64,000 bases of DNA from Bacteroidales bacterium (GTDB taxonomy: Bacteria > Bacteroidota > Bacteroidia > Bacteroidales > VadinHA17), in NCBI GenBank assembly GCA_046329875.1, contig JAXLTT010000018.1, forward strand, positions 933 through 64,932. The letters are read 5' to 3'. The notes beneath the pieces are model-generated. The model made no database searches. It saw only the letters and a list, made by a program, of their open reading frames with translations, and was not told the DNA's origin. Both the position numbers and the translations under genes were made by a program. Positions 1-58,201 of this stretch are shown one piece after another. Each line of letters begins with the position of its first letter. Within the stretch, counting starts at the first letter, position 1.

Positions 1-486
1 TATCTGCCTTTCACCACCGCTGAAGATATTTACATAATCTATATAATCATCGCTCGCCTCGGTCACCGACACGCTGTTCCATCCCGATTTCTTTGATACG
101 ATGAAAACGATACCGACAATTATAAAGATAGATGGCCAGAACATGTTATACATGTGGAAAGTTTCGCTGAATATTATAGGGATAAGGAAAAATGCACCTA
201 CTGCCATTATTATGATCCCCGAAGTCTTGCTTCCCGAAGAGCCTATTGTAATAACGAGACCGATTACAACAAGAAGCATCGGCCAGCTGAAAATAACGCT
301 GTCGATGAAGCCCGAGAAGATCCCGGTGTTCCTCAGTACAAGGAACAGTCCGGCGAGAACAAGTATTATACCTATTATCCCCCTGTTACTGTTAAGATGC
401 CTGTGCTCCCTCATTTCATTTTTCAGGTTACGGCGCTCCTCCCTCATCCGGTGGCGCTCATCTCTGTAGTTATCATTAGTTTCCAT
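1..486 (-). CDS. LiaF-like multi-pass membrane protein (3' end truncated by window edge)
   Basis: My own minus-strand translation from ATG at 486 (METNDNYRDERHRM...) stays open to position 1 and shows several hydrophobic helices. The overlapping plus-strand ORFs 101-469 and 154-513 look like shadows of it. Confidence 0.55.
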   Translation of the reverse strand, partial: METNDNYRDERHRMREERRNLKNEMREHRHLNSNRGIIGIILVLAGLFLVLRNTGIFSGFIDSVIFSWPMLLVVIGLVITIGSSGSKTSGIIIMAVGAFFLIPIIFSETFHMYNMFWPSIFIIVGIVFIVSKKSGWNSVSVTEASDDYIDYVNIFSGGERQI

Positions 487-509
487 AGCGGTAAATTTAT
501 TGTTTTTAT

Positions 510-857
510 TTAATTAATCTCCTTTTTTCCCCTGCGTATGAGCGAGGAAACTATAAATGACAGGCCAATCAGGATAATAACACCCGGCCAGTAGAGTGTT
601 TTTACATACTGTGGCAGGTCGTAGTAAACCTGGTCGAGAAGGAACCATGTTCCTCCTGCTATGCACAGGATTCCTCCTGTAAAATTCAGATTAACGAGCA
701 GCAGTACACCAACAAAGATCAGTATGGTCTGCCATGTAAAATAGTTATGAAAGCTTCCAAGGTGAAAAAAGTCGTTTGTTGCTGCCAGAAGTGCCAGGCC
801 AAGAACAATGAAGAAAAGTCCTATGCCTACTCGTGGATGATGTTCTCTGCGTCTCAT
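510..857 (-). CDS. small membrane protein (LiaI/LiaF-type TM region-like)
   Basis: 115 aa with 3-4 hydrophobic helices, in tandem with the previous membrane ORF. Confidence 0.5.
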   Translation of the reverse strand: MRRREHHPRVGIGLFFIVLGLALLAATNDFFHLGSFHNYFTWQTILIFVGVLLLVNLNFTGGILCIAGGTWFLLDQVYYDLPQYVKTLYWPGVIILIGLSFIVSSLIRRGKKEIN

Positions 858-1011
858 TTCTTTTCGTTTTTACCTGCAGCAAAAATATGTTTGAACAATA
901 GCGTGTGGTGAGTCCTTTTCGGCGAACGGCGGGTAAATGCCGGTAAATGACGTTTTGAAGCAAGTCGTGTTACTTTTTTGTTCATAATTTTTTTAATTGG
1001 CGAAGGATTTA

Positions 1012-1019
1012 TATTTTTG
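1012..1019 (+). promoter_or_regulatory. candidate Bacteroidota -7 box (TATTTTTG, fits TAnnTTTG)
   Basis: The motif lies about 20 nt upstream of the yceD-like start. Confidence 0.35.
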
Positions 1020-1036
1020 CAGACCAAAATTTTAAA

Positions 1037-1555
1037 ATGATGGCCGGTTTATATGTTATACCGTTAAGCGGTTTAAAGGATGGTCGGCACACTTATAATT
1101 TTGAAATAGGGGAATCGTTCTTTGCTCAGTTTGAAGATTCAGAGATTTCAAAGGGGGATCTTACGGCAATAGTGGAGCTTGACAAACACTCCACGCATCT
1201 CGACCTGAGGTTTCATATCACAGGATATGTTGAAACAGGTTGCGACAGGTGCCTTGAGATTTACAGGCAGCCGGTTGAAAGTGATAACAGGCTTCTCGTG
1301 AAGATTGGAAGCAAGTGGGATGATGAAGATCCGGAAATGATTACGATCCCGACTGATGAACATGAACTCGATTTAATACAGTATCTTTATGAGTTCATTT
1401 CGCTTTCGCTTCCGATTCAGCGTATACATCCCGATGACGCGGAAGGCAACAGCACCTGCGACCCCGAGATGATCAGGAAACTGAACGAGCATGCTGCGCC
1501 GGGAGACAATGACCCCAGGTGGGATGAATTGAAAAAGTTGATGAATAAAAATTAA
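1037..1555 (+). CDS. YceD/DUF177 family protein
   Basis: 172 aa acidic protein with a CxxC (CDRC), immediately upstream of rpmF, which is the canonical yceD-rpmF-plsX-fabH arrangement. Confidence 0.8.
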   Translation: MMAGLYVIPLSGLKDGRHTYNFEIGESFFAQFEDSEISKGDLTAIVELDKHSTHLDLRFHITGYVETGCDRCLEIYRQPVESDNRLLVKIGSKWDDEDPEMITIPTDEHELDLIQYLYEFISLSLPIQRIHPDDAEGNSTCDPEMIRKLNEHAAPGDNDPRWDELKKLMNKN

Positions 1556-1567
1556 ATAAGAAGAGAA

Positions 1568-1753
1568 ATGGCACATCCGAAACATAAACACTCGAAGACC
1601 AGGAGAGACAAGAGGAGAACTCATTACAAGGCAACTGCTCCTACAACAGCTTCCTGCTCAAACTGCGGATCTCCCGTTCAGTATCACAGGGTATGTCCGG
1701 AATGCGGATATTACAGGGGAAAACCTGCTATAGAGAAAAAAGTTTCAGCATAG
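1568..1753 (+). CDS. rpmF: 50S ribosomal protein L32
   Basis: MAHPKHKHSKTRRDKRR N-terminus, CxxC...CxxC zinc ribbon, 61 aa. Confidence 0.95.
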   Translation: MAHPKHKHSKTRRDKRRTHYKATAPTTASCSNCGSPVQYHRVCPECGYYRGKPAIEKKVSA

Positions 1754-1777
1754 ATCCGTTTAACTAAACGGTAAGAG

Positions 1778-2716
1778 ATGAGAATAGGTCTCGACGTAAT
1801 GGGCGGCGATTTTGCTCCCGATGCAGTAATTGAGGGAGCTGCCGATTCGCTTTCACACCTTGGAAAGGATGAAAAACTTGTTCTTATCGGAAATGAACAG
1901 CATATCCTCGACAAACTCAGGGGTATGTCTGTTGATCCTTCCCGTTTCGAAATAGTAAATACCACACAGGTTATCGAGATGGGCGACCATCCGGCCAAGG
2001 CATTCTCACAGAAAAAGAATTCAAGCATTGCCGTTGGATATGGTATGCTTAAAAGCGGGCTGATCGACGGATTTTGCAGCGCCGGCAATACAGGCGCCAT
2101 GCTCGTCGGAGCCAGTTATACAGTAAATGTGATACCTGGTGTTCTCCGCCCCGCACTCGCCACACTGATACCCTCTGTATCAGGCAAGGCATCAGTGATT
2201 CTCGATGTTGGCCTTAACCCCGATACCAAACCCGATGTCCTTCTCCAGTATGGCATACTCGGAAGGATTTTTGCACAGGACGTGCTCGAAATAAGCAATC
2301 CCACTGTAGGGCTTCTGAACATCGGTGAAGAGGAAACTAAGGGAACACCTGCAATAAAGTCAGCCTATGAGCTGATGAAAGACAATCCTGCTCTCAATTT
2401 CACAGGGAATATTGAGGGTAACCACCTCTATTCCGACAAGATGCCCGATGTAATAGTTTGCGACGGCTTTGTTGGAAATGTAGTACTCAAACAGACCGAA
2501 GCATTCCACCATGTCTGCGCTCTCAAGAATATAAGCGATCCGTTCTTCGACCAGCTCGATTTCGAGAATATCGGCGGAACGCCTGTAATCGGGATAAACG
2601 CAAACGTTGTTATCGGTCATGGAATATCGAAGCGAAAAGCTATAATGAATATGGTTCTCCAGACAAAGGCAGTTGTTCATGCTGACCTCGCCCAGAGAAT
2701 CAAAGAAGCTATTTAA
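1778..2716 (+). CDS. plsX: phosphate acyltransferase PlsX
   Basis: 312 aa with [14 protein letters not shown] start, in rpmF-plsX-fabH synteny. Confidence 0.93.
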
Positions 2717-2721
2717 CAATT

Positions 2722-3720
2722 ATGGGAAAACTGAGGGCTGCTGTTACCGGGATCAATGCCTGGGTCCCTGAATACAGATTAACCAACCATGAACTGTCTA
2801 CCCTCGTCGATACTTCCGACGAGTGGATAATGCAGAGGGTGGGCATCAAGGAAAGAAGAATTCTTAAAGGAGAAGGTCTCGGAACTTCCGATCTTGGCTA
2901 CAAAGCCGTCCTTGGACTCCTTGAAAAGACAAACACTTCACCCGACGAGGTGGATCTCCTTGTCTGCGCCACAGTCACTCCCGACATGCTTTTCCCCGCC
3001 ACGGCAAACATTATCTGTGACAAAGCCGGGATAAAAAACGCATTCAGCTTCGACCTAGGAGCAGCCTGCTCGGGATTTCTGTTTTCCCTGCAGACAGCTG
3101 CAACCTATGTTGAATCAGGAAGATATAAGAAAGTTATTGTTGTAGGTGCCGACAAAATGTCATCTATAACTGACTATACAGACCGTACAACATGCCCGCT
3201 TTTTGGTGATGCTGCCGCAGCCGTCCTTCTCGAACCAACTACTGATGAGTATGGCATTATGGACCATATCTTCCATGTTGATGGTTCGGGCAGGAAATTC
3301 CTTCATCTCAAAGCCGGAGGCTCAGTGAAACCTGCTTCGCATGCAACAGTCGATGCAAGGGAACATTATGTTTACCAGGAAGGACAGGCAGTTTTCAAAT
3401 TTGCCGTTACCAATATGGCTGATGTTGCAGTCCAGATTATGGAGAAAAATAACCTTACAGCAGATGATGTTGCATGGCTCGTTCCTCACCAGGCCAACCT
3501 CAGGATAATCGATGCCACGGGAAGGAGAATGGGTATCTCTCCGGATAAGGTTATGATAAACATTGAAAAGTACGGGAATACAACTGCAGCAACAATTCCA
3601 CTTGTGCTTTCAGAGTTTGAGCCAAAACTGAAAAAAGGGGACAATCTTATCCTTGCAGCTTTCGGAGGAGGATTCACCTGGGGTTCGATATGGCTCCGCT
3701 GGGCTTACGACCAGAAATAA
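2722..3720 (+). CDS. fabH: 3-oxoacyl-ACP synthase III
   Basis: Active-site Cys context GAACSGF, HQAN and GNT motifs, 332 aa. Confidence 0.93.
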
Positions 3721-3781
3721 TTCCACCCTTTACCGGATTCAACAAAAAAACGTGCAGGTACATTTTATCTGCAATAGTTTT

Positions 3782-3789
3782 TATATTTG
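3782..3789 (+). promoter_or_regulatory. candidate -7 box TATATTTG
   Basis: TAnnTTTG match 36 nt upstream of the bactofilin/atp cluster start. Confidence 0.35.
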
Positions 3790-3824
3790 TGAGTTATTAT
3801 TTCTAAGATTTAACTCCGACAGCC

Positions 3825-4232
3825 ATGGCAAAGTACAATGAGACAGAAAATCCTACAATAAACCTCATAAGTAACGGAACCGATATTACCGGCGATATAA
3901 AATCAAACGGCGATATCCGTATCGATGGAACCCTTACAGGTAACCTGAGCACAAAAGGCAAGGTTGTAATTGGTCCGACAGGAAGAATCAAAGGAGAGGT
4001 AATCTGCAAAAACTCTGAAGTATCCGGCGTCATCGAGGGTAAAATAAGTGTCGGACAGCTTCTGAATCTTAAAGCCTCGTCAAAAATACTTGGAGACATT
4101 GTCACATCGAAGCTTGCAATTGAACCGGGTGCACGTTTTACAGGAAATTGCAATATGACCGATTCAGAAGAAAATGGAGGATCCGTCAATTCAAAAGGAC
4201 CAGAAAAACCAGGAGAAAAAGCAGGAAAATAA
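3825..4232 (+). CDS. bactofilin (polymer-forming cytoskeletal protein)
   Basis: Repetitive beta-helix pattern (DITGDIKSNGDIRIDGTLTGNL...IKGEV...VSGVIEGKI) typical of DUF583/bactofilin. Confidence 0.8.
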   Translation: MAKYNETENPTINLISNGTDITGDIKSNGDIRIDGTLTGNLSTKGKVVIGPTGRIKGEVICKNSEVSGVIEGKISVGQLLNLKASSKILGDIVTSKLAIEPGARFTGNCNMTDSEENGGSVNSKGPEKPGEKAGK

Positions 4233-4422
4233 CGGACTCAGGAATTTTGCCCGTTATTCCGGCCTTGGCATCCAGATGGGTGTGATAATCTTCATTACCG
4301 TCTGGGGCGGTATGAAACTCGATCACCTCCTTCTGCTTAAAACACCAGTCTTTACTATAGTACTGTCATTGCTTGGCGTGTTTGCTGCAATCTATACTGC
4401 CATCAGGGATTTTATAAGGTAA
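4174..4422 (+). CDS. AtpZ/AtpI-like small membrane protein of the F-ATPase operon
   Basis: NFARYSGLGIQMGVIIF...GMKLD motif and two TM helices. The start is uncertain because the ORF overlaps the bactofilin 3' end by 59 nt. Confidence 0.6.
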   Translation: MEDPSIQKDQKNQEKKQENNGLRNFARYSGLGIQMGVIIFITVWGGMKLDHLLLLKTPVFTIVLSLLGVFAAIYTAIRDFIR

Positions 4423-4808
4423 TGAATGATACGCTGAAATACCTTGCCCTTACCCTGGTTCTCCTGCTGATTATCCTTACTGCAGGAGCCATCCTTGTAA
4501 AAAACAGCAGTACCGATTTCACATTCAGCGAATACTTCCTCCTTTCATTTTCAATGGCTTCCATAGCCGCTGCAGTTATTTTAATCTTCATGCGCGGTCA
4601 GCATCGCGAAGCAAAGGAAGAAGTAATGTTCACATTTACCGCGATAGGATTGAAATTCGTCCTCGAACTGTTTCTCGCAATGGCATGGTTTCTCATCGCT
4701 AAAAAAAGCTCCATCCAATGTGTGATATTGTTTTTTGTACTATATTTAACGTTCTCGATCTTTACGGTCGTTTGTATATTAAAAAGATTGAAAAAGAAAT
4801 CTTTATAA
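4422..4808 (+). CDS. hypothetical 4-TM membrane protein in the atp operon
   Basis: 128 aa, hydrophobic, TAATG overlap with the preceding ORF. Confidence 0.55.
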   Translation: MNDTLKYLALTLVLLLIILTAGAILVKNSSTDFTFSEYFLLSFSMASIAAAVILIFMRGQHREAKEEVMFTFTAIGLKFVLELFLAMAWFLIAKKSSIQCVILFFVLYLTFSIFTVVCILKRLKKKSL

Positions 4809-11603: not shown

Positions 11604-13127
<1,524 letters not shown>

Positions 13128-24166: not shown

Positions 24167-24586
24167 ATGAAAACCGGAAATATGTTTTTTGGTGCCAGTG
24201 CTCAAATATTTGAGACTGCAAATTATTTAAGGAACCATATGACTCATGCAGAACTTGTACTATGGTCCAGGCTTAAAAATCGAAACATTATCAATCAAAA
24301 GTTCAGAAGACAACATCCAATTGGCAACTACATCGTGGATTTTTATTGTCATAAACTTAAGCTGATTATCGAAGTCGATGGAGAAATCCATCATGATGAA
24401 TTGCAAAGAAAATATGATCTTAAACGATCCTCTGAGCTTAATAATCTCGGTCTGATAATTATGAGATTTAATAATAACGAAATCCTGTATAATCTTAGCG
24501 AAGTTGTAAAACAGATTCAACTTAAAATTAAAGATCTCAGCCCCCTCCAGGGGGCGGCCCCGGTTCACCGGGGCGGGGGTCGATAA
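24167..24586 (+). CDS. DUF559 (Vsr-like) endonuclease domain protein
   Basis: LRNHMTHAELVLWSRLKNR...KFRRQHPIGNYIVDFYC...LIIEVDGEIH pattern. The last 16 or so codons and the stop are supplied by the GC-rich repeat. Confidence 0.8.
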   Translation: MKTGNMFFGASAQIFETANYLRNHMTHAELVLWSRLKNRNIINQKFRRQHPIGNYIVDFYCHKLKLIIEVDGEIHHDELQRKYDLKRSSELNNLGLIIMRFNNNEILYNLSEVVKQIQLKIKDLSPLQGAAPVHRGGGR

Positions 24587-24892
24587 AGCACTGCCCAAAA
24601 TTAATACATGGACTTCAGCCCCCTACAGGGGGCGGCCCCGGTCCACCGGGTCGGGGGTCGATAAAGCACTGCCCAAAATTAATACATGGACCTCAGCCCC
24701 CTCCAGGGGGCGGCCCCGGTTCTCCAGGGCGGGGGTCGATAAAGCACTGCCCAAAATTAATACATGGACTTCAGCCCCCTACAGGGGGCGGCCCCGGTTC
24801 ACCGGGGCAGGGGTCGATAAAGCACTGCCCAAAATTAATACATAGACTTCAGCCCCCTCCAGGGGGCGGCCCCGGTTCACCGGGGCGGGGGT
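24538..24892 (+). repeat. 78-bp tandem repeat array (5 hairpin cores, 4 identical AT-rich linkers)
   Basis: Cores start at 24538, 24616, 24694, 24772 and 24850. The linker is CGATAAAGCACTGCCCAAAATTAATACATGGAC, and the cores carry point differences. Confidence 0.95.
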
Positions 24893-25019
24893 CATAAATC
24901 CTGTTAATTATGTAAAATCCCATATATTTACTAAATTTCTTTCCCGTGATGCAGCACTGCAATAAAAAGGCAGTCATTTGGTCAGGAATGAAAAAATAGA
25001 AACATAAAAATTAAACGTC

Positions 25020-29350: not shown

Positions 29351-29448
29351 CTTTGTGTTACTTCGTGCGTACTTTGTGTCCCTTTGTGGTAAAACAAAAG
29401 CCTTAACCACAAAGGATCACTAAGGTCAGCACAAAGGATCACAAAGGG
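29351..29448. repeat. imperfect palindrome built from CTTTGTG / CACAAAG heptamer units
   Basis: Three CTT(T/C)GTG units face three CACAAAG units around CCCTTTGTGGT...ACCACAAAGG. Confidence 0.8.
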
Positions 29449-45289: not shown

Positions 45290-45562
45290 TCACAGGCAGG
45301 AAGTCACATGTACGATGATGGGGATGAGAAGGGGGATGGGGAGAATGGGAGAATGGGAGAAAAGGAGAACAGGAGAAAATGGGATGAAGGGAGTATGGGA
45401 ATAGGAGAATGGGAGAAGTTAGAATTTAGTTTAAGAAGCTACACAGAGTTACACTGAGAAGGCACAGAGGTACACAGAGGTGATTAACCCCAAGCCCCAC
45501 ACCTCATACCTCACAACATTTCCCGAATTCTCTGCTTCCCCGTTTCTCTGCTTCTCCTTTTC
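45290..45562. repeat. composite low-complexity block
   Basis: A polypurine tract of GGGAGAA-like units (about 45300-45425). Then four CACAGAG-type units (45440-45483). Then a polypyrimidine tract (45484-45562). Confidence 0.8.
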
Positions 45563-45622
45563 TTAATTCTGGCGGCAGGAAATGAAAATATCGTACTCGA
45601 AACCGGGAATAATGCTGGACAT
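45563..45622 (-). pseudogene. 19-codon remnant of a second TIR-gene 5' end
   Basis: Minus strand reads ATG TCC AGC ATT ATT CCC GGT TTC GAG TAC GAT ATT TTC ATT TCC TGC CGC CAG AAT TAA. This is MSSIIPGFEYDIFISCRQN*, and 52 of 54 nt match 47981-48034. Confidence 0.75.
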
Positions 45623-48034
45623 TTATTGAGGAGTATATCTATTTATTAACTCTAAAAATTCAGGCATTTTTCTGAGTTTGGTCCATTTGGGATCCAGTTC
45701 AAGTGTTTTTACTGAGATAACCCCTGGGATAGAAAGGAGATAATTAATCTTATCCAGAGCTTCTTTATTTCTATTGCTCATTACATATACCTCGGCAAGG
45801 TTTTCCTCGAAATATACCCCTTTCCAGGCCTCTTTACTGACAGGCATTATTTCTAAAGCTTTATTACTTGCCCATAAGGCTTTGTCAGCTAATCCAAGAC
45901 CGCCATATGCAATGCCTAGTGAACTATACAGGCGAGGATCATCTCCAGCTTCAGATAGTTTATTCTCAATATAAACCTTTGCTGAATCGTAATATATAGT
46001 TGCCATTCGACGATCATTCATCAAATCATAAATAAATGCATAATAAAGGTACTTTGGCCTGAAATAATATTGAGTTTGAAAAACTTTCGCTTTATAATTT
46101 GCTAATGTTTTCAGGGCTTTCTCATAGTTGCCTTCGTAAAGGCTGATTCTTAAATCTGTTTCAATCAATAGGGAATCTGAGCCAGTACTTTTATTAAGAT
46201 TTATTGCACCTTCAATTATCTTTCTTGCTTTCATCAGGTCGCCCTTCCATCTGATGTACATCAGGGCTAATTCGTGATAAGGATAGACCCAATCGGGCTG
46301 AACCATTAAGGTTTTGTTATAATATAGTTCAGCTTTTTCATAATCACGAAGAAGATCAAAAGTTTCACCGGTATTGAAAGAAATTCTTGAGGACATGGGA
46401 TCAATTTCCATACCTTTTAAGAAAAACTCCTTTGCTTTTAACCAGTTACCCTGTCGCCTGTAAACTGAAGCTGCGATATAAATGGCATCAAGGTTTCCAG
46501 GCTGGAGTTTAAGTGCAAGATCAATCTGCTTAAGTGCTTCTTCATAATTTAGGTGTCCCACATAATAATATGAGGCATATGCAACGTAAACATCAGGCAG
46601 ATCCGGATCAATCTTAAATGCTTTGTCTATTGTTTCTTTGCTTCTTTTAATAATCTGTTCATCACGGATTTCGTAGAACCAGTATTGATAAAGCAGGCAT
46701 ATCGCAATCCTTGTATATGCCATTGCAAATTCAGGGTCTGCCTCAACTGCTTTTTCATATAATTTAATTGCTGTTTCATAATCTTGTGAAGCATAACTTT
46801 TTGAATAATAGAAGTTGCCGCGGAGGTAAAAGTTGTAAGCCTCGATGTTTTTTGTTGGTTTCTTTTCTATTTCCTTTACCTCTTTTGTCGGGATTATTGT
46901 ATTTAACTCAACCGCAATTTCTTTTGCTATTTCGCTCTGAAGAGCAAATATCTGGTCAATTGTCATTTCCTTGAGAAATTCATTTGACCATTTTTGTCTG
47001 TCATTTTTAACGTCTATAAGTTGAACCCATATTTTTCTTTTATTCCCCACCTTGGCAACACTGCCCTGTATAAGATAGTTTGCATTAAGTTCTTTGCCAA
47101 TAGTGTAAATAGACTTCTTCGAATCTCTGTACTGCTCGCATGATGTTCTGGACCTTACAGCGAAGCTTTTAACCTTTTGAAGGTTGTTCAGAAGTTCTTC
47201 CATAAAGCCGTCGACGAAATGGGTAGTGTCATTACTCAAATCACGAAAAGGTAGAACCGCGATTGTTTTTTCTGGCTGATCTTTTGATTTAAAAAATCGG
47301 GGTATGATAAAAATACTCAAAGCAATTACCAGAAAATAAAGTAGTGAAACCTTAAAGGTTGACTTGATTTTCTTCTTTTTGAATACCTTATCATGTTCAA
47401 CAGGGTTCTCATTAACATTCAGATGACTTGTGGGATTAAGTTTCAATCCTGAGATTATTTCCTTTATCGCGATAGCAACCTTGTTAATCTGGTTTTTATA
47501 CCTGGTTCCATTCATGTTCTTTCTTTCGTCTTCCCCTGGCGTTAATGGCCGGTTTACTCCTGCTTCTTTATAAATGAATTCTACCCCCCTGATAAATCCT
47601 CCAAGTTCTTTTTCTAGCAGCTTTTTATCCTCCGGATCAAGATCATGTATCTGCACAGGGAGAACTCGTGATGCAACGTTTCCCCCTGGTAGTTTTACTT
47701 TCAATCCAAACTGGTCTTCTGATGCAAGCTTTATAAATGCCTTAAATTCATGTTCCCATGCAAATGATTTTGGATCACAATAAGTCCGGGATATGATTGG
47801 AATGAATATCAGGCATTTTAGTTTTTCTTTCAGGGAGGCATCCACGTCATGGGTCTCAAGAAGGCCGTCATGAGGATTGCTGTCGAAATAAACACTTATT
47901 TCTTCTTTGAATGTTGACTCGAGTTCACCTTTGAGGTTATTCACGAATTCAGTAACCCAGCCGTCATGTTTATTGTCTTTCTGGCGGTAGGAAATGAAAA
48001 TATCGTACTCGAAACCGGGGATAATGCTGGACAT
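45623..48034 (-). CDS. TIR domain, TM helix, periplasmic TolB-N-like module and TPR-repeat protein
   Basis: N-terminus FEYDIFISYRQKDN...IFIPIISRTY...WEHEF (TIR_2 pattern). TM helix at LLYFLVIALSIFIIP, then IAVLPFRDLSND, then many TPR-like helices. ATG at 48034 was preferred over the 48106 extension. Confidence 0.8.
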   Translation of the reverse strand: MSSIIPGFEYDIFISYRQKDNKHDGWVTEFVNNLKGELESTFKEEISVYFDSNPHDGLLETHDVDASLKEKLKCLIFIPIISRTYCDPKSFAWEHEFKAFIKLASEDQFGLKVKLPGGNVASRVLPVQIHDLDPEDKKLLEKELGGFIRGVEFIYKEAGVNRPLTPGEDERKNMNGTRYKNQINKVAIAIKEIISGLKLNPTSHLNVNENPVEHDKVFKKKKIKSTFKVSLLYFLVIALSIFIIPRFFKSKDQPEKTIAVLPFRDLSNDTTHFVDGFMEELLNNLQKVKSFAVRSRTSCEQYRDSKKSIYTIGKELNANYLIQGSVAKVGNKRKIWVQLIDVKNDRQKWSNEFLKEMTIDQIFALQSEIAKEIAVELNTIIPTKEVKEIEKKPTKNIEAYNFYLRGNFYYSKSYASQDYETAIKLYEKAVEADPEFAMAYTRIAICLLYQYWFYEIRDEQIIKRSKETIDKAFKIDPDLPDVYVAYASYYYVGHLNYEEALKQIDLALKLQPGNLDAIYIAASVYRRQGNWLKAKEFFLKGMEIDPMSSRISFNTGETFDLLRDYEKAELYYNKTLMVQPDWVYPYHELALMYIRWKGDLMKARKIIEGAINLNKSTGSDSLLIETDLRISLYEGNYEKALKTLANYKAKVFQTQYYFRPKYLYYAFIYDLMNDRRMATIYYDSAKVYIENKLSEAGDDPRLYSSLGIAYGGLGLADKALWASNKALEIMPVSKEAWKGVYFEENLAEVYVMSNRNKEALDKINYLLSIPGVISVKTLELDPKWTKLRKMPEFLELINRYTPQ

Positions 48035-48152
48035 CAGGAGGCTTTGTTTTGATAAAGTTAGGAAAGTATTGGATGCTAGGCAAATAAAAATGAGTAGAGG
48101 AGTCACTCCCCCCGCATGCCAATCTTTAAAGATGCCTTACAGTAAGTTTGGT

Positions 48153-48270
48153 GCGATTGCTTCGTCTCCGCCATCTGGCGGATACTCGCAATGACAATAA
48201 CTAAAGTATCTGGGTTGTACTGGTCATTGCGATCCCGACATCGTCGGGAGAAGCAATCGCTAAAAACTAT
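48153..48270. repeat. inverted pair of REP-like units
   Basis: GCGATTGCTTC-hairpin-TCGCAATGAC (48153-48195) and GTCATTGCGA-hairpin-GAAGCAATCGC (48233-48270). The inner hairpins differ: TCCGCCatctGGCGGA versus TCCCGACatcGTCGGGA. Confidence 0.8.
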
Positions 48271-50465: not shown

Positions 50466-50503
<38 letters not shown>

Positions 50504-55226: not shown

Positions 55227-55418
55227 CCCTGCAACGGCCAGGCGGGGGTGCGCGGAGCGCACAAGGCGAAAGTTTAAAGGAGAAAGGCGAAAGTCAAAAG
55301 TAAAAAGTAAGAAAAGCAATTGGGCTGATAAATCACTTGCAGTTTCTGTCAAGGTGGCCTTTAGGTCCCCGGCAAAAAGTGTGACAAACAAATGAACTTT
55401 ATTGTCCATGTTAGCATT
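55227..55418 (-). repeat. attC-like site g (about 192 bp)
   Basis: Left CCCTGCAACGGCCAGGC, right TTATTGTCCATGTTAGCATT. Confidence 0.7.
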
Positions 55419-57859: not shown

Positions 57860-58201
57860 CGCTAACGGCCCGGCGAGGGCTGAGCGTAAATAAATTGCCT
57901 GAATGGCAATTTTAGCGAGGAGCCAGCTTGCAGGGGTGGCAATATAAGGTAAAAGTTAAAAGTAAAAAGTCAAAAGTAAAAAGGCAAAAGTAAAAAGTAA
58001 GAAAAGCATTCGGGCTGCTAAACCACTTGGGGTATTTGCTCGGCTGGCGTTTACGTCACCGGGGAAAAACCATGACAACTGCGTAAGCCGAAGCTTTCTT
58101 GACCACCAAAGCTTTCTTGTCCACCGAAGCTTTAGCGGAGGTGGAAGCGTAGTCGGGGGCGAAGGCTTAGCTTATTAAACATACCGACCGTGTTATAGGC
58201 T
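57860..58201 (-). repeat. attC-like site i (about 342 bp)
   Basis: Left CCGCTAACGGCCCGGCGAGGGCTGAGCG, right AACATACCGACCGTGTTATAGGC. Contains an AAAAGT-rich tract. Confidence 0.7.

Follow-up and report, generated by a model that had tools for sequence, protein, structure and literature searches.

A probable relic of a deleted tandem paralog directly behind a TIR-like membrane receptor gene in a Bacteroidales genome

Why should a gene be followed, without a single spacer nucleotide, by a second copy of its own beginning? The question is raised by a 64,000-nucleotide (nt) stretch of DNA from a Bacteroidales bacterium of the VadinHA17 lineage (contig JAXLTT010000018.1 of assembly GCA_046329875.1, positions 933 to 64,932), referred to below as the window. 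On its minus strand lies a gene for a TIR-like, single-pass membrane protein, whose open reading frame (ORF) and translation place the ATG at 48034 and the TAA at 45625-45623. All close homologues (∼800 amino acids [aa]) begin at this same Met in the alignment, and for this reason an in-frame GTG further upstream, at 48106, was not taken as the start. The segment directly behind the TAA (45622-45569) is identical to the start of the gene (48034-47981) at 52 of 54 positions, and the match can be extended to 54 of 56 (45567-45622 versus 47979-48034). Only these two copies of the 54-nt sequence occur in the window, with no match in 100 shuffled sequences. The ATG of the duplicate (45622-45620) stands 2,412 nt from that of the gene, and the short ORF which it opens, MSSIIPGFEYDIFISCRQN, is closed by a stop codon at 45565-45563, exactly where a composite low-complexity block starts. 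The copies differ by a silent change (ATC to ATT) and by a TAC-to-TGC change that turns Tyr-16 into Cys (Y16C). Thus, the match, the abutment of TAA and ATG, the spacing and the truncation after 19 codons at the low-complexity block, all of them pointed out by an earlier sequence-only reading of this DNA, were confirmed. Furthermore, the stub recurs unchanged, both differences included, in an independent MEGAHIT contig in ENA, from another strain (L001). The protein encoded there (P0001) is 99% identical to that of the window gene, for which no exact record was found in the lookup, and the two contigs show 234 mismatches over 9 kb. The duplicate is real and non-random.

The comparative data make it probable that the duplicate is what remains, in decay, of the 5' end of a tandem copy that lay downstream and was deleted. 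Stop-ATG junctions are inherited in this family, and conversion of 5' ends is active. According to this reading, the window contains a single intact gene from a large family of single-pass membrane receptors in Bacteroidota, and a second member of the array would once have abutted it, with its ATG directly after the stop. The body of that member would then have been deleted, with the downstream junction lying in the low-complexity/inverted-repeat block, possibly by the mediation of these repeats, and the leftover 56-nt 5' end would have decayed, as suggested by Y16C. The fact that the stub carries this change at a residue which is otherwise invariant, and ends at the repeat block, is what argues for a relic of a lost copy.

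Head-to-tail arrays of family genes are common (contigs L002, L013, L019, L067 and others), with gaps between full-length neighbours of 1, 9, 9, 25, 30, 37, 55 and 89 nt, among others, and of 0 to 257 nt overall. Metagenomes were scanned for a stop codon placed directly before an ATG with the family 5' motif, and such zero-gap junctions were found behind a family gene in six contigs. The junction leads to a full-length downstream paralog in L086, L107 and L131, and to a stub alone in L097 (∼48 aa), L101 (∼27 aa) and L115 (∼62 aa). The 1.1-Mb contig L002, whose gene is 58% identical to that of the window, carries an 800-aa gene, a 9-nt gap, and an 805-aa gene whose TGA is followed at once by the ATG of a 24-codon stub. 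Counting the window and L002 together with L097, L101 and L115, a stub follows in five of the eight zero-gap junctions.

The proteins encoded before the full-length zero-gap neighbours end in EKYTVN, NKYSVN and EKYKVN, and those preceding the stubs in L002 and in the window end in EKYTVN and NRYTPQ, respectively. This subfamily C terminus, KY(T/S/K)VN in general and RYTPQ in the window, is homologous among the window, L002, L086, L107 and L131. Given this homology, the abutting stop and ATG are best understood, from the sequences compared, as an inherited operon-type junction of the subfamily and not as the scar of a precise duplication. The 2,412-nt "unit" would exist because two genes abutted. 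The sequence-only reading had taken the repeat unit to equal exactly one ORF; the spacing is as it stated, and the special precision that it saw in the scar gives way to the inherited junction. On the other hand, its suggestion of a collapsed tandem array of TIR paralogs is the one favoured by the comparative data, namely, by the arrays and the full-length zero-gap neighbours.

The resemblance of the stub to the gene start has to be judged against the conservation of this region in the family. Across genomes, family genes agree in their opening 54 nt at a mean of 40 of 54 positions (74%; standard deviation, 3.9), the 99.9th percentile being 52, and some unrelated genomes reach 54/54. Paralogs at the same locus reach 49-52/54, and hence the 52/54 of the window lies within the family range. 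The value was considered as proof of a very recent self-duplication, an argument that is weakened by these same-locus paralogs and by the identical starts in unrelated genomes. The best match of the window stub is its own upstream gene (54/56, the next best being 45), and that of the L002 stub is likewise its own upstream gene (65/73, the next best being 61). Two histories would fit: the lost gene arose recently by tandem duplication, or it was a paralog and gene conversion had made its 5' end uniform with that of its neighbour.

Tandem pairs are most alike at their 5'/TIR end, with identities of 90% (L013), 93% (L058) and 95% (L049) in the first 60 nt, and the L086 pair shows 83 to 97% identity over 600 nt and ∼60% thereafter. 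This is the pattern expected of concerted evolution of the 5' end. The window gene itself carries a similar mark. When it was compared with its counterpart in L001, 45 of the 46 differences within the gene fell in nt 63 to 240, most of them being synonymous, with 7 amino acid changes. Only one mismatch was seen in the rest of the gene (2.2 kb) together with the stub and the repeats as far as position 45348, whereas the flanks were 4 to 7% divergent downstream and ∼1% divergent upstream. The divergent tract begins where the conserved 5' block and the homology to the stub end, and it terminates at the conserved beta-C block. Nucleotides 63 to 240 are thus an inter-paralog conversion tract, and the conserved blocks that bound it are live crossover points in this lineage. 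The window/L001 mosaic is of a kind typical of gene conversion plus recent segment exchange. Of the cassette-like swapping proposed by the sequence-only reading, what survives is homologous exchange or gene conversion at the 5' block; no recombinase was found near the gene, and the stub breakpoints are not fixed.

In a census of 146 family loci, stubs turned up repeatedly. The count was at least 23 distinct short ones of 19 to 66 aa from the N terminus, plus one of 98 aa; very few family pieces measured 80 to 200 aa, and C-terminal stubs were absent. The gene models without the N terminus all begin at the transmembrane boundary, and consequently they were taken for other proteins that share the sensor. 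The detection of very short pieces is biased toward the conserved N terminus; among pieces of at least 40 aa, about 7 were N-terminal versus 0 C-terminal. Stub breakpoints are spread over codons 19 to 98. A fixed breakpoint or site-specific core was considered and discarded, given that the stub ends vary.

The content of the stubs points to relaxed constraint. Tyr-16 was invariant in the family in two 27-sequence alignments and is Cys in the window stub. The L002 stub has the changes E9G and Y10C, that of L072 has Q18R, N21Y and an early stop, and that of L080 has lost its start codon. The window stub thus appears to be a decaying, non-functional relic. The stubs of the window, L058, L115 and L042/L089 end at simple repeats or at palindromes resembling repetitive extragenic palindromic (REP) sequences, and stubs that bear a putative promoter and have no gene body occur in L058, L072 and L040.

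Several arrangements of stubs deserve separate mention. In L089 (5100-8400; also in L114 and L125), a segment of ∼3 kb that lacks a full-length gene carries five N-terminal stubs of ∼21 to 66 aa. Among them stand a PIN toxin/antitoxin pair, a zeta-toxin-like gene and a gene for a REP-associated tyrosine transposase (RAYT). The stubs are homologous to one another from ∼40 nt upstream of the ATG onward. A stub together with ∼230 nt of REP-like hairpin sequence is 89% identical between L042 (9339-9668), a Chryseolinea metagenome-assembled genome (MAG), and L089 (8377-8068), an unrelated metagenome contig that carries a partial copy of the element at 12146-12203, which indicates that stubs can persist beside dispersed REP-type elements. 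In L118 (12846-12950; also in L133 and L140), a full-length gene is followed, ∼2.8 kb further downstream, by an inverted stub (aa 3 to 38), gene and stub being on opposite strands; since the 5' regions of stub and gene are in inverted orientation, they form an inverted repeat that could support inversion.

Some observations fit poorly with the relic of a simple deletion. Random deletion does not predict a left breakpoint within the first 19 codons and a right one beyond the stop, and both zero-gap junctions in the GTDB species-representative sample lead to stubs, not to full genes. Besides, an intact second copy at the locus was found in no relative; the sole syntenic contig, L001, already has the stub. 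These points weigh against the reading given above. The clustering of stubs at 19 to 66 codons throughout the family, with none from the C terminus, suggests that neutral decay is not all that shapes them and that a recombination hot spot or selection takes part. Plausible contributors would be ectopic recombination that begins at the 5' block and is aborted or one-ended, deletions mediated by repeats or REP elements, counter-selection of truncated genes in which an unregulated TIR domain survives, and selection retaining promoters for co-oriented downstream genes.

The first of these contributors can be enlarged into an alternative explanation, which we consider improbable. The conserved 5' block (approximately nt 1 to 62) would be a portable site of homologous recombination, one-ORF units would leave zero-gap arrays as circles or by unequal crossing-over and re-insert at family 5' blocks, and stubs would result from aborted or one-ended events. 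The outcome would be ORF-precise gain, loss and mosaicism, and the window stub would be the mark of such an event and not of a simple deletion. In its favour are the conversion tract of the window gene, which begins exactly after the 5' block; the mosaic identity profiles of tandem pairs; the cross-genome identity of the block, 74% on average and up to 54/54; the asymmetry between at least 23 unique N-terminal stubs of 19 to 66 aa and no C-terminal ones; the stubs at five of the eight zero-gap junctions; and the end of the stretch identical in both strains, which falls close to the stub and its repeats. However, homologous recombination at the 5' block gives hybrid full genes, and the stubs would still need an illegitimate step. 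The breakpoints, dispersed over codons 19 to 98, reveal no core site; neither a circle nor a recombinase nor an att-like structure came to light; and 62 nt is short for RecA-type exchange. A bolder form of the same idea, which we hold to be slightly more doubtful still, is that the hyper-conserved first ∼60 nt are a selected recombination module, serving a homology-based cassette shuffling of Toll-like-receptor-shaped TIR receptors with diversifying sensors in Bacteroidota, with the stubs as footprints. If that were so, the 5' module would drive ORF-precise array growth and contraction as well as domain-level mosaicism.

A dedicated site-specific cassette system of the integron or shufflon type, with the 54-nt sequence as attachment site and the 2,412-bp ORF as cassette, is very unlikely. 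The direct repeats do bracket exactly one ORF, the bodiless promoter-bearing stubs of L058, L072 and L040 resemble empty expression sites, and the five stubs of L089 stand among toxin-antitoxin and RAYT genes. Nevertheless, no integrase or invertase gene lies near the window gene (none within ∼8 kb), stubs end anywhere between codons 19 and 98, and full-length tandem genes stand 0 to 257 nt apart. The stubs carry inactivating drift, and the similarity of the repeats is explained by conservation at the protein level plus gene conversion.

Little probability is likewise given to a functional stub, be it a 19-aa peptide made by translational coupling or an RNA or DNA element that acts in cis (terminator, decoy or regulatory site for the conserved 5' mRNA). 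The TAA-ATG junction would permit coupling, the stub is kept in both strains, and stubs recur in the family. Against a function, the window stub has Y16C at an invariant position, and other stubs have varied lengths, lost starts and premature stops. No Rfam match and no terminator-like site were found in the stub region, the folding of which does not depart from that of shuffled sequences (z = −0.2). Moreover, the identity between the strains spans the whole 2.4-kb block, and there is thus no sign of selection on the stub in particular.

Finally, an assembly artefact, that is, a repeat-induced join at a conserved k-mer, which the sequence-only reading had named as what would overturn it, can be dismissed as next to impossible: the 5' block is indeed conserved among paralogs, and short contigs of the neighbouring gene (L147, L148) do break in the low-complexity block, but the copies differ at 2 of 54 positions, the independent assembly of a different strain (L001) has the same stub with the same differences, and the 1.1-Mb contig L002 shows the same architecture.

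The positions of the features of the locus are collected in Table 1.

Table 1. Features of the TIR-like receptor gene, its 5'-end duplicate and the surrounding repeats (window coordinates)
Feature	Position	Strand	Basis or remark
Full-length gene (TIR-like domain, transmembrane helix, TolB-N-like module, TPR), 803 aa plus TAA	45623..48034	-	ORF, translation, homologue starts
Conserved 5' block of the gene, repeat copy 1	47981..48034	-	Repeat comparison
Stub, ATG abutting the gene TAA, 19 codons plus TAA	45563..45622	-	Homology to the gene start over 45567-45622 (54/56)
Tract ∼25% divergent between two strains, gene nt 63-240	47795..47972	-	Window versus L001 (8063-8240)
N-terminal, putatively cytoplasmic TIR-like domain, residues 1-200	47435..48034	-	AlphaFold model, Foldseek
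E96 codon, candidate catalytic glutamate	47747..47749	-	Start of helix 92-106, after strand 74-81
Single transmembrane helix, residues 227-248, KKKKIK on its N-terminal side	47291..47356	-	Hydrophobicity
TolB-N-like alpha/beta module, putatively periplasmic, residues ∼255-385	46880..47272	-	Model, Foldseek
TPR region, putatively periplasmic, with TPR end-of-group C terminus	45626..46879	-	Pfam, NCBIfam
Low-complexity/imperfect inverted-repeat block ending the stub (read as deletion junction)	45339..45563	.	Repeat analysis
16-nt repeat, x2.2	45528-45563		Part of low-complexity block
TACACAGAGG, x4	45440-45481		Part of low-complexity block
GGGAGAAT, x10	45339-45417		Part of low-complexity block
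44-nt imperfect inverted arms	45358-45401 and 45520-45563		Part of low-complexity block
REP-like inverted repeat (arms of 19 nt) in the cupredoxin-TIR intergenic region	48145..48268	.	Repeat analysis
Conserved upstream motif CTTTCCTAACTTTATCAAAACAA, promoter-like	48046..48067	-	blastn-short matches upstream of family starts

The architecture of the protein proposed in the sequence-only reading, a TIR domain, one transmembrane helix, a TolB-N-like module and TPRs, was borne out, with some reserve as to the first of these. The AlphaFold model of residues 1 to 200 had a pLDDT of 76 and a pTM of 0.78, and the top Foldseek matches in the PDB were the TIR domains of RPS4, RUN1, Roq1, TcpB, L7 and AbTir (E values of 4e-5 to 1e-3). 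At E ≤ 1e-3, eight of the nine matches were TIR domains and the remaining one was an NLR core chain, and the TMt against stand-alone TIR chains was 0.42 to 0.62 for this moderate-confidence model. In contrast, the sequence profiles stayed below their thresholds: TIR_2 (PF13676) matched at an E value of 0.13, with 13.2 bits for a cut-off of 28, and an NCBIfam FxsC TIR-like model matched, also below its cut-off, at an E value of 0.12. When the family profile was compared with the PDB, the L6/L7 TIR domain was reached at an E value of ∼0.1, with the beta-A (YDIFISYR) and beta-C (IFIPIIS..Y) motifs aligned. A TIR (flavodoxin-like) fold is thus supported for the modelled N-terminal domain by structural comparison, the assignment falling short at the level of Pfam and NCBIfam thresholds. 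No helix-turn-helix (HTH) match was obtained for the N terminus with Pfam or NCBIfam.

The catalytic Glu of TIR NADases lies at the start of the helix that follows beta-C. In the window protein, E96 occupies the beginning of such a helix and was invariant in two 27-sequence alignments. The alignment with the L6/L7 TIR ends at residue 89, so that E96 was placed relative to the IFIPIIS..Y motif; it would be the equivalent of the catalytic Glu of L6 and RUN1, across a 2-residue insertion.

A conserved extension of ∼50 aa separates the TIR-like domain from the transmembrane helix, which is the sole hydrophobic 19-residue window in the protein. By the positive-inside rule, the N terminus would be cytoplasmic and the C terminus periplasmic. 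The model of residues 250 to 405 had a pLDDT of 85, and the module behind the helix matched FlgT, GNA1162, the TolB N-domain, PelC, LpoB and the CadC periplasmic domain in Foldseek (E values of 6e-7 to 1e-4). Matches to Pfam TolB_N and LpoB were weak, and the NCBIfam model NF009037 (HilA/EilA) covers residues 254 to 480. The TPR assignment is strong, with Pfam TPR_2, TPR_12, TPR_17 and others at E values of 1e-13 to 1e-10, and with NF047558 (TPR end-of-group) covering residues 745 to 798. Judging from these models, the protein would be in effect a CadC-type one-component receptor with a TIR-like output and the topology of a Toll-like receptor. Such a receptor would sense a periplasmic cue and answer by TIR oligomerisation or NAD+ chemistry.

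More than 7,000 proteins matched at E ≤ 1e-3 among the matches listed, mostly of ∼800 aa and 54 to 60% identical, and the majority of family members came from MAGs of Bacteroidales/Bacteroidia, with many paralogs within individual MAGs. A search with the N-terminal domain gave 1,176 representatives of 50%-identity clusters (E ≤ 1e-3), in which the domain always occupied residues 1 to 198 and was 65 to 84% identical; conservation of the sensor is much lower. The searchable literature yielded no account of this architecture, and the family, very large and strongly conserved, is apparently undescribed.

Comparison with known systems places the family between several of them. It resembles the NADase or signalling TIRs (RPS4, RUN1, L6/L7, AbTir, TcpB, ThsB) in that the flavodoxin-like fold is the best structural match and, with respect to L6/L7, in the aligned beta-A and beta-C motifs; the invariant E96, the candidate catalytic residue, stands at the start of the following helix. 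It differs from them in missing the Pfam TIR_2 and NCBIfam cut-offs and forming a tight sequence family of its own, with the domain always N-terminal and extended by ∼50 aa before the transmembrane helix, and with neither a partner gene nor a PADLOC match. The same C-terminal sensor module is found in CadC/ToxR-like one-component receptors (winged HTH, transmembrane helix, TolB_N and helical/TPR region; HilA/EilA), also with a single transmembrane helix, and in rhizobial adenylate cyclase-transmembrane-TolB_N-TPR proteins, whereas the output of the window protein is TIR-like instead of DNA binding or a cyclase. Toll-like receptors share the extracytoplasmic solenoid-repeat sensor, the single transmembrane segment and the cytoplasmic TIR, and also the many paralogs with conserved TIR and diversifying sensor. 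Nevertheless, the TIR of the window protein is N-terminal, in reversed order, and its repeats are TPRs instead of leucine-rich repeats; the likeness is one of topology, without evidence of common descent of the whole architecture, and no adaptor is known.

With regard to the duplicate, tandem-paralog pseudogene stubs and the orphan modules of rhs and cdiA also present a short conserved piece downstream of an intact copy and recombination between copies. The rhs/cdiA orphans, however, keep a variable functional C-terminal module and an immunity gene, while the window stub retains only the decaying N-terminal 19 codons. The 5'-region shufflons (Mycoplasma vsa and the invertible families of Bacteroides) likewise use a conserved 5' coding block as a crossover point, but with inverted repeats, a fixed core and a dedicated recombinase, as opposed to the direct repeats and variable breakpoints found here, with no recombinase nearby. 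The duplicate is regarded as an ordinary relic and not as a new mobile-cassette mechanism, and the gene family is of more interest than the duplicate, by virtue of its Toll-like-receptor topology and of having been missed by standard TIR and defence-system models. Should the TIR-like domain prove to be an active NADase or to generate a signal, the family would consist of one-component TIR receptors that face the envelope, a mode of TIR regulation not characterised in bacteria. The conversion tract and the excess of N-terminal stubs offer a testable handle on the turnover of the receptor repertoire.

A role in defence, as known for bacterial TIR domains in Thoeris, CBASS and Pycsar, found no support in the context of the gene. 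PADLOC gave only marginal matches (PDC-S12, E = 0.012; bSEFIR, E = 0.082), and no recombinase or defence gene lies within ∼8 kb of the gene. The neighbours are of a housekeeping kind (genes for a cupredoxin, a methyltransferase, RidA, a glyoxalase, a 224-aa hypothetical protein, an M14 peptidase, an AHSA1 protein, a pyridoxal phosphate enzyme and a major facilitator superfamily transporter), with no ThsA, cyclase or STING-type partner among them. No match was obtained in the phage database and no full-length match in plasmids; the plasmid tblastn matches to residues 232 to 709 correspond to the sensor module under HTH-domain and adenylate/guanylate cyclase genes. Membership in the known TIR anti-phage systems (Thoeris, TIR effectors of CBASS and Pycsar, TIR-STING, TIR-NLR) was accordingly rejected, the PADLOC matches being marginal and there being neither a partner gene nor a mobile or island context.

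L001 was the only syntenic contig found. The comparison of the window from ∼51493 onward with L001 positions 1 to 4547 showed that synteny stops ∼3.5 kb upstream of the gene; beyond the break, L001 carries different genes (267, 347, 299 and 197 aa), which makes this a strain-variable region beside the locus. Comparison of the locus through the adjacent 224-aa gene was abandoned, as its homologues of 62 to 67% identity are non-syntenic and lie in unrelated contexts, and its exact copies are on ∼1-kb contigs (L147, L148) that break in the low-complexity block.

The gene is more AT rich than its surroundings, as noted previously, with 37.1% G+C versus 43.5% in the flanks. Family genes mostly follow the G+C content of their hosts (mean difference, −1.3%), and the window gene, with −6.4%, is at the low end of the family. 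This value is not decisive, and a foreign origin was not deduced from it.

The gene had also been described as embedded between REP-like and low-complexity repeats. Both are present, the upstream REP-like hairpin having no further copy in the window. The low-complexity block likewise has no second copy, either in the window or in the family loci compared, and the only related finding is that of GGGAGAA-type simple repeats adjoining family genes or stubs in L058 and L068; its interpretation as a dispersed miniature inverted-repeat transposable element was discarded on these grounds.

The upstream motif CTTTCCTAACTTTATCAAAACAA (core, TAACTTTATCA) sits ∼12 to 33 nt before family ATGs in many genomes. 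Matches to it just 5' of family starts were found by blastn-short in L044, L144, L023, L005, L074 and L071, and it also precedes the stand-alone stubs of L058 and L072. It probably represents a promoter or leader element that these genes have in common.

Two further observations were made in passing. An otherwise full-length family gene in L100 (173-1030) has an in-frame TGA at the invariant W26 (GGCTGA for GGCTGG), which would be either a nonsense mutation or a sequencing error. Elsewhere in the window, a GC-rich 78-nt unit with the internal palindromes CCCCCTCCAGGGGG and CCCCGGTTCACCGGGG is repeated 4.7 times in tandem at 24537-24898 (93% matches), and short-period tandem repeats (6 to 21 nt) occur at 29408-29447, 50466-50503, 55263-55307 and 57951-58000, indicating that simple repeats like those bounding the stub are general in this genome.

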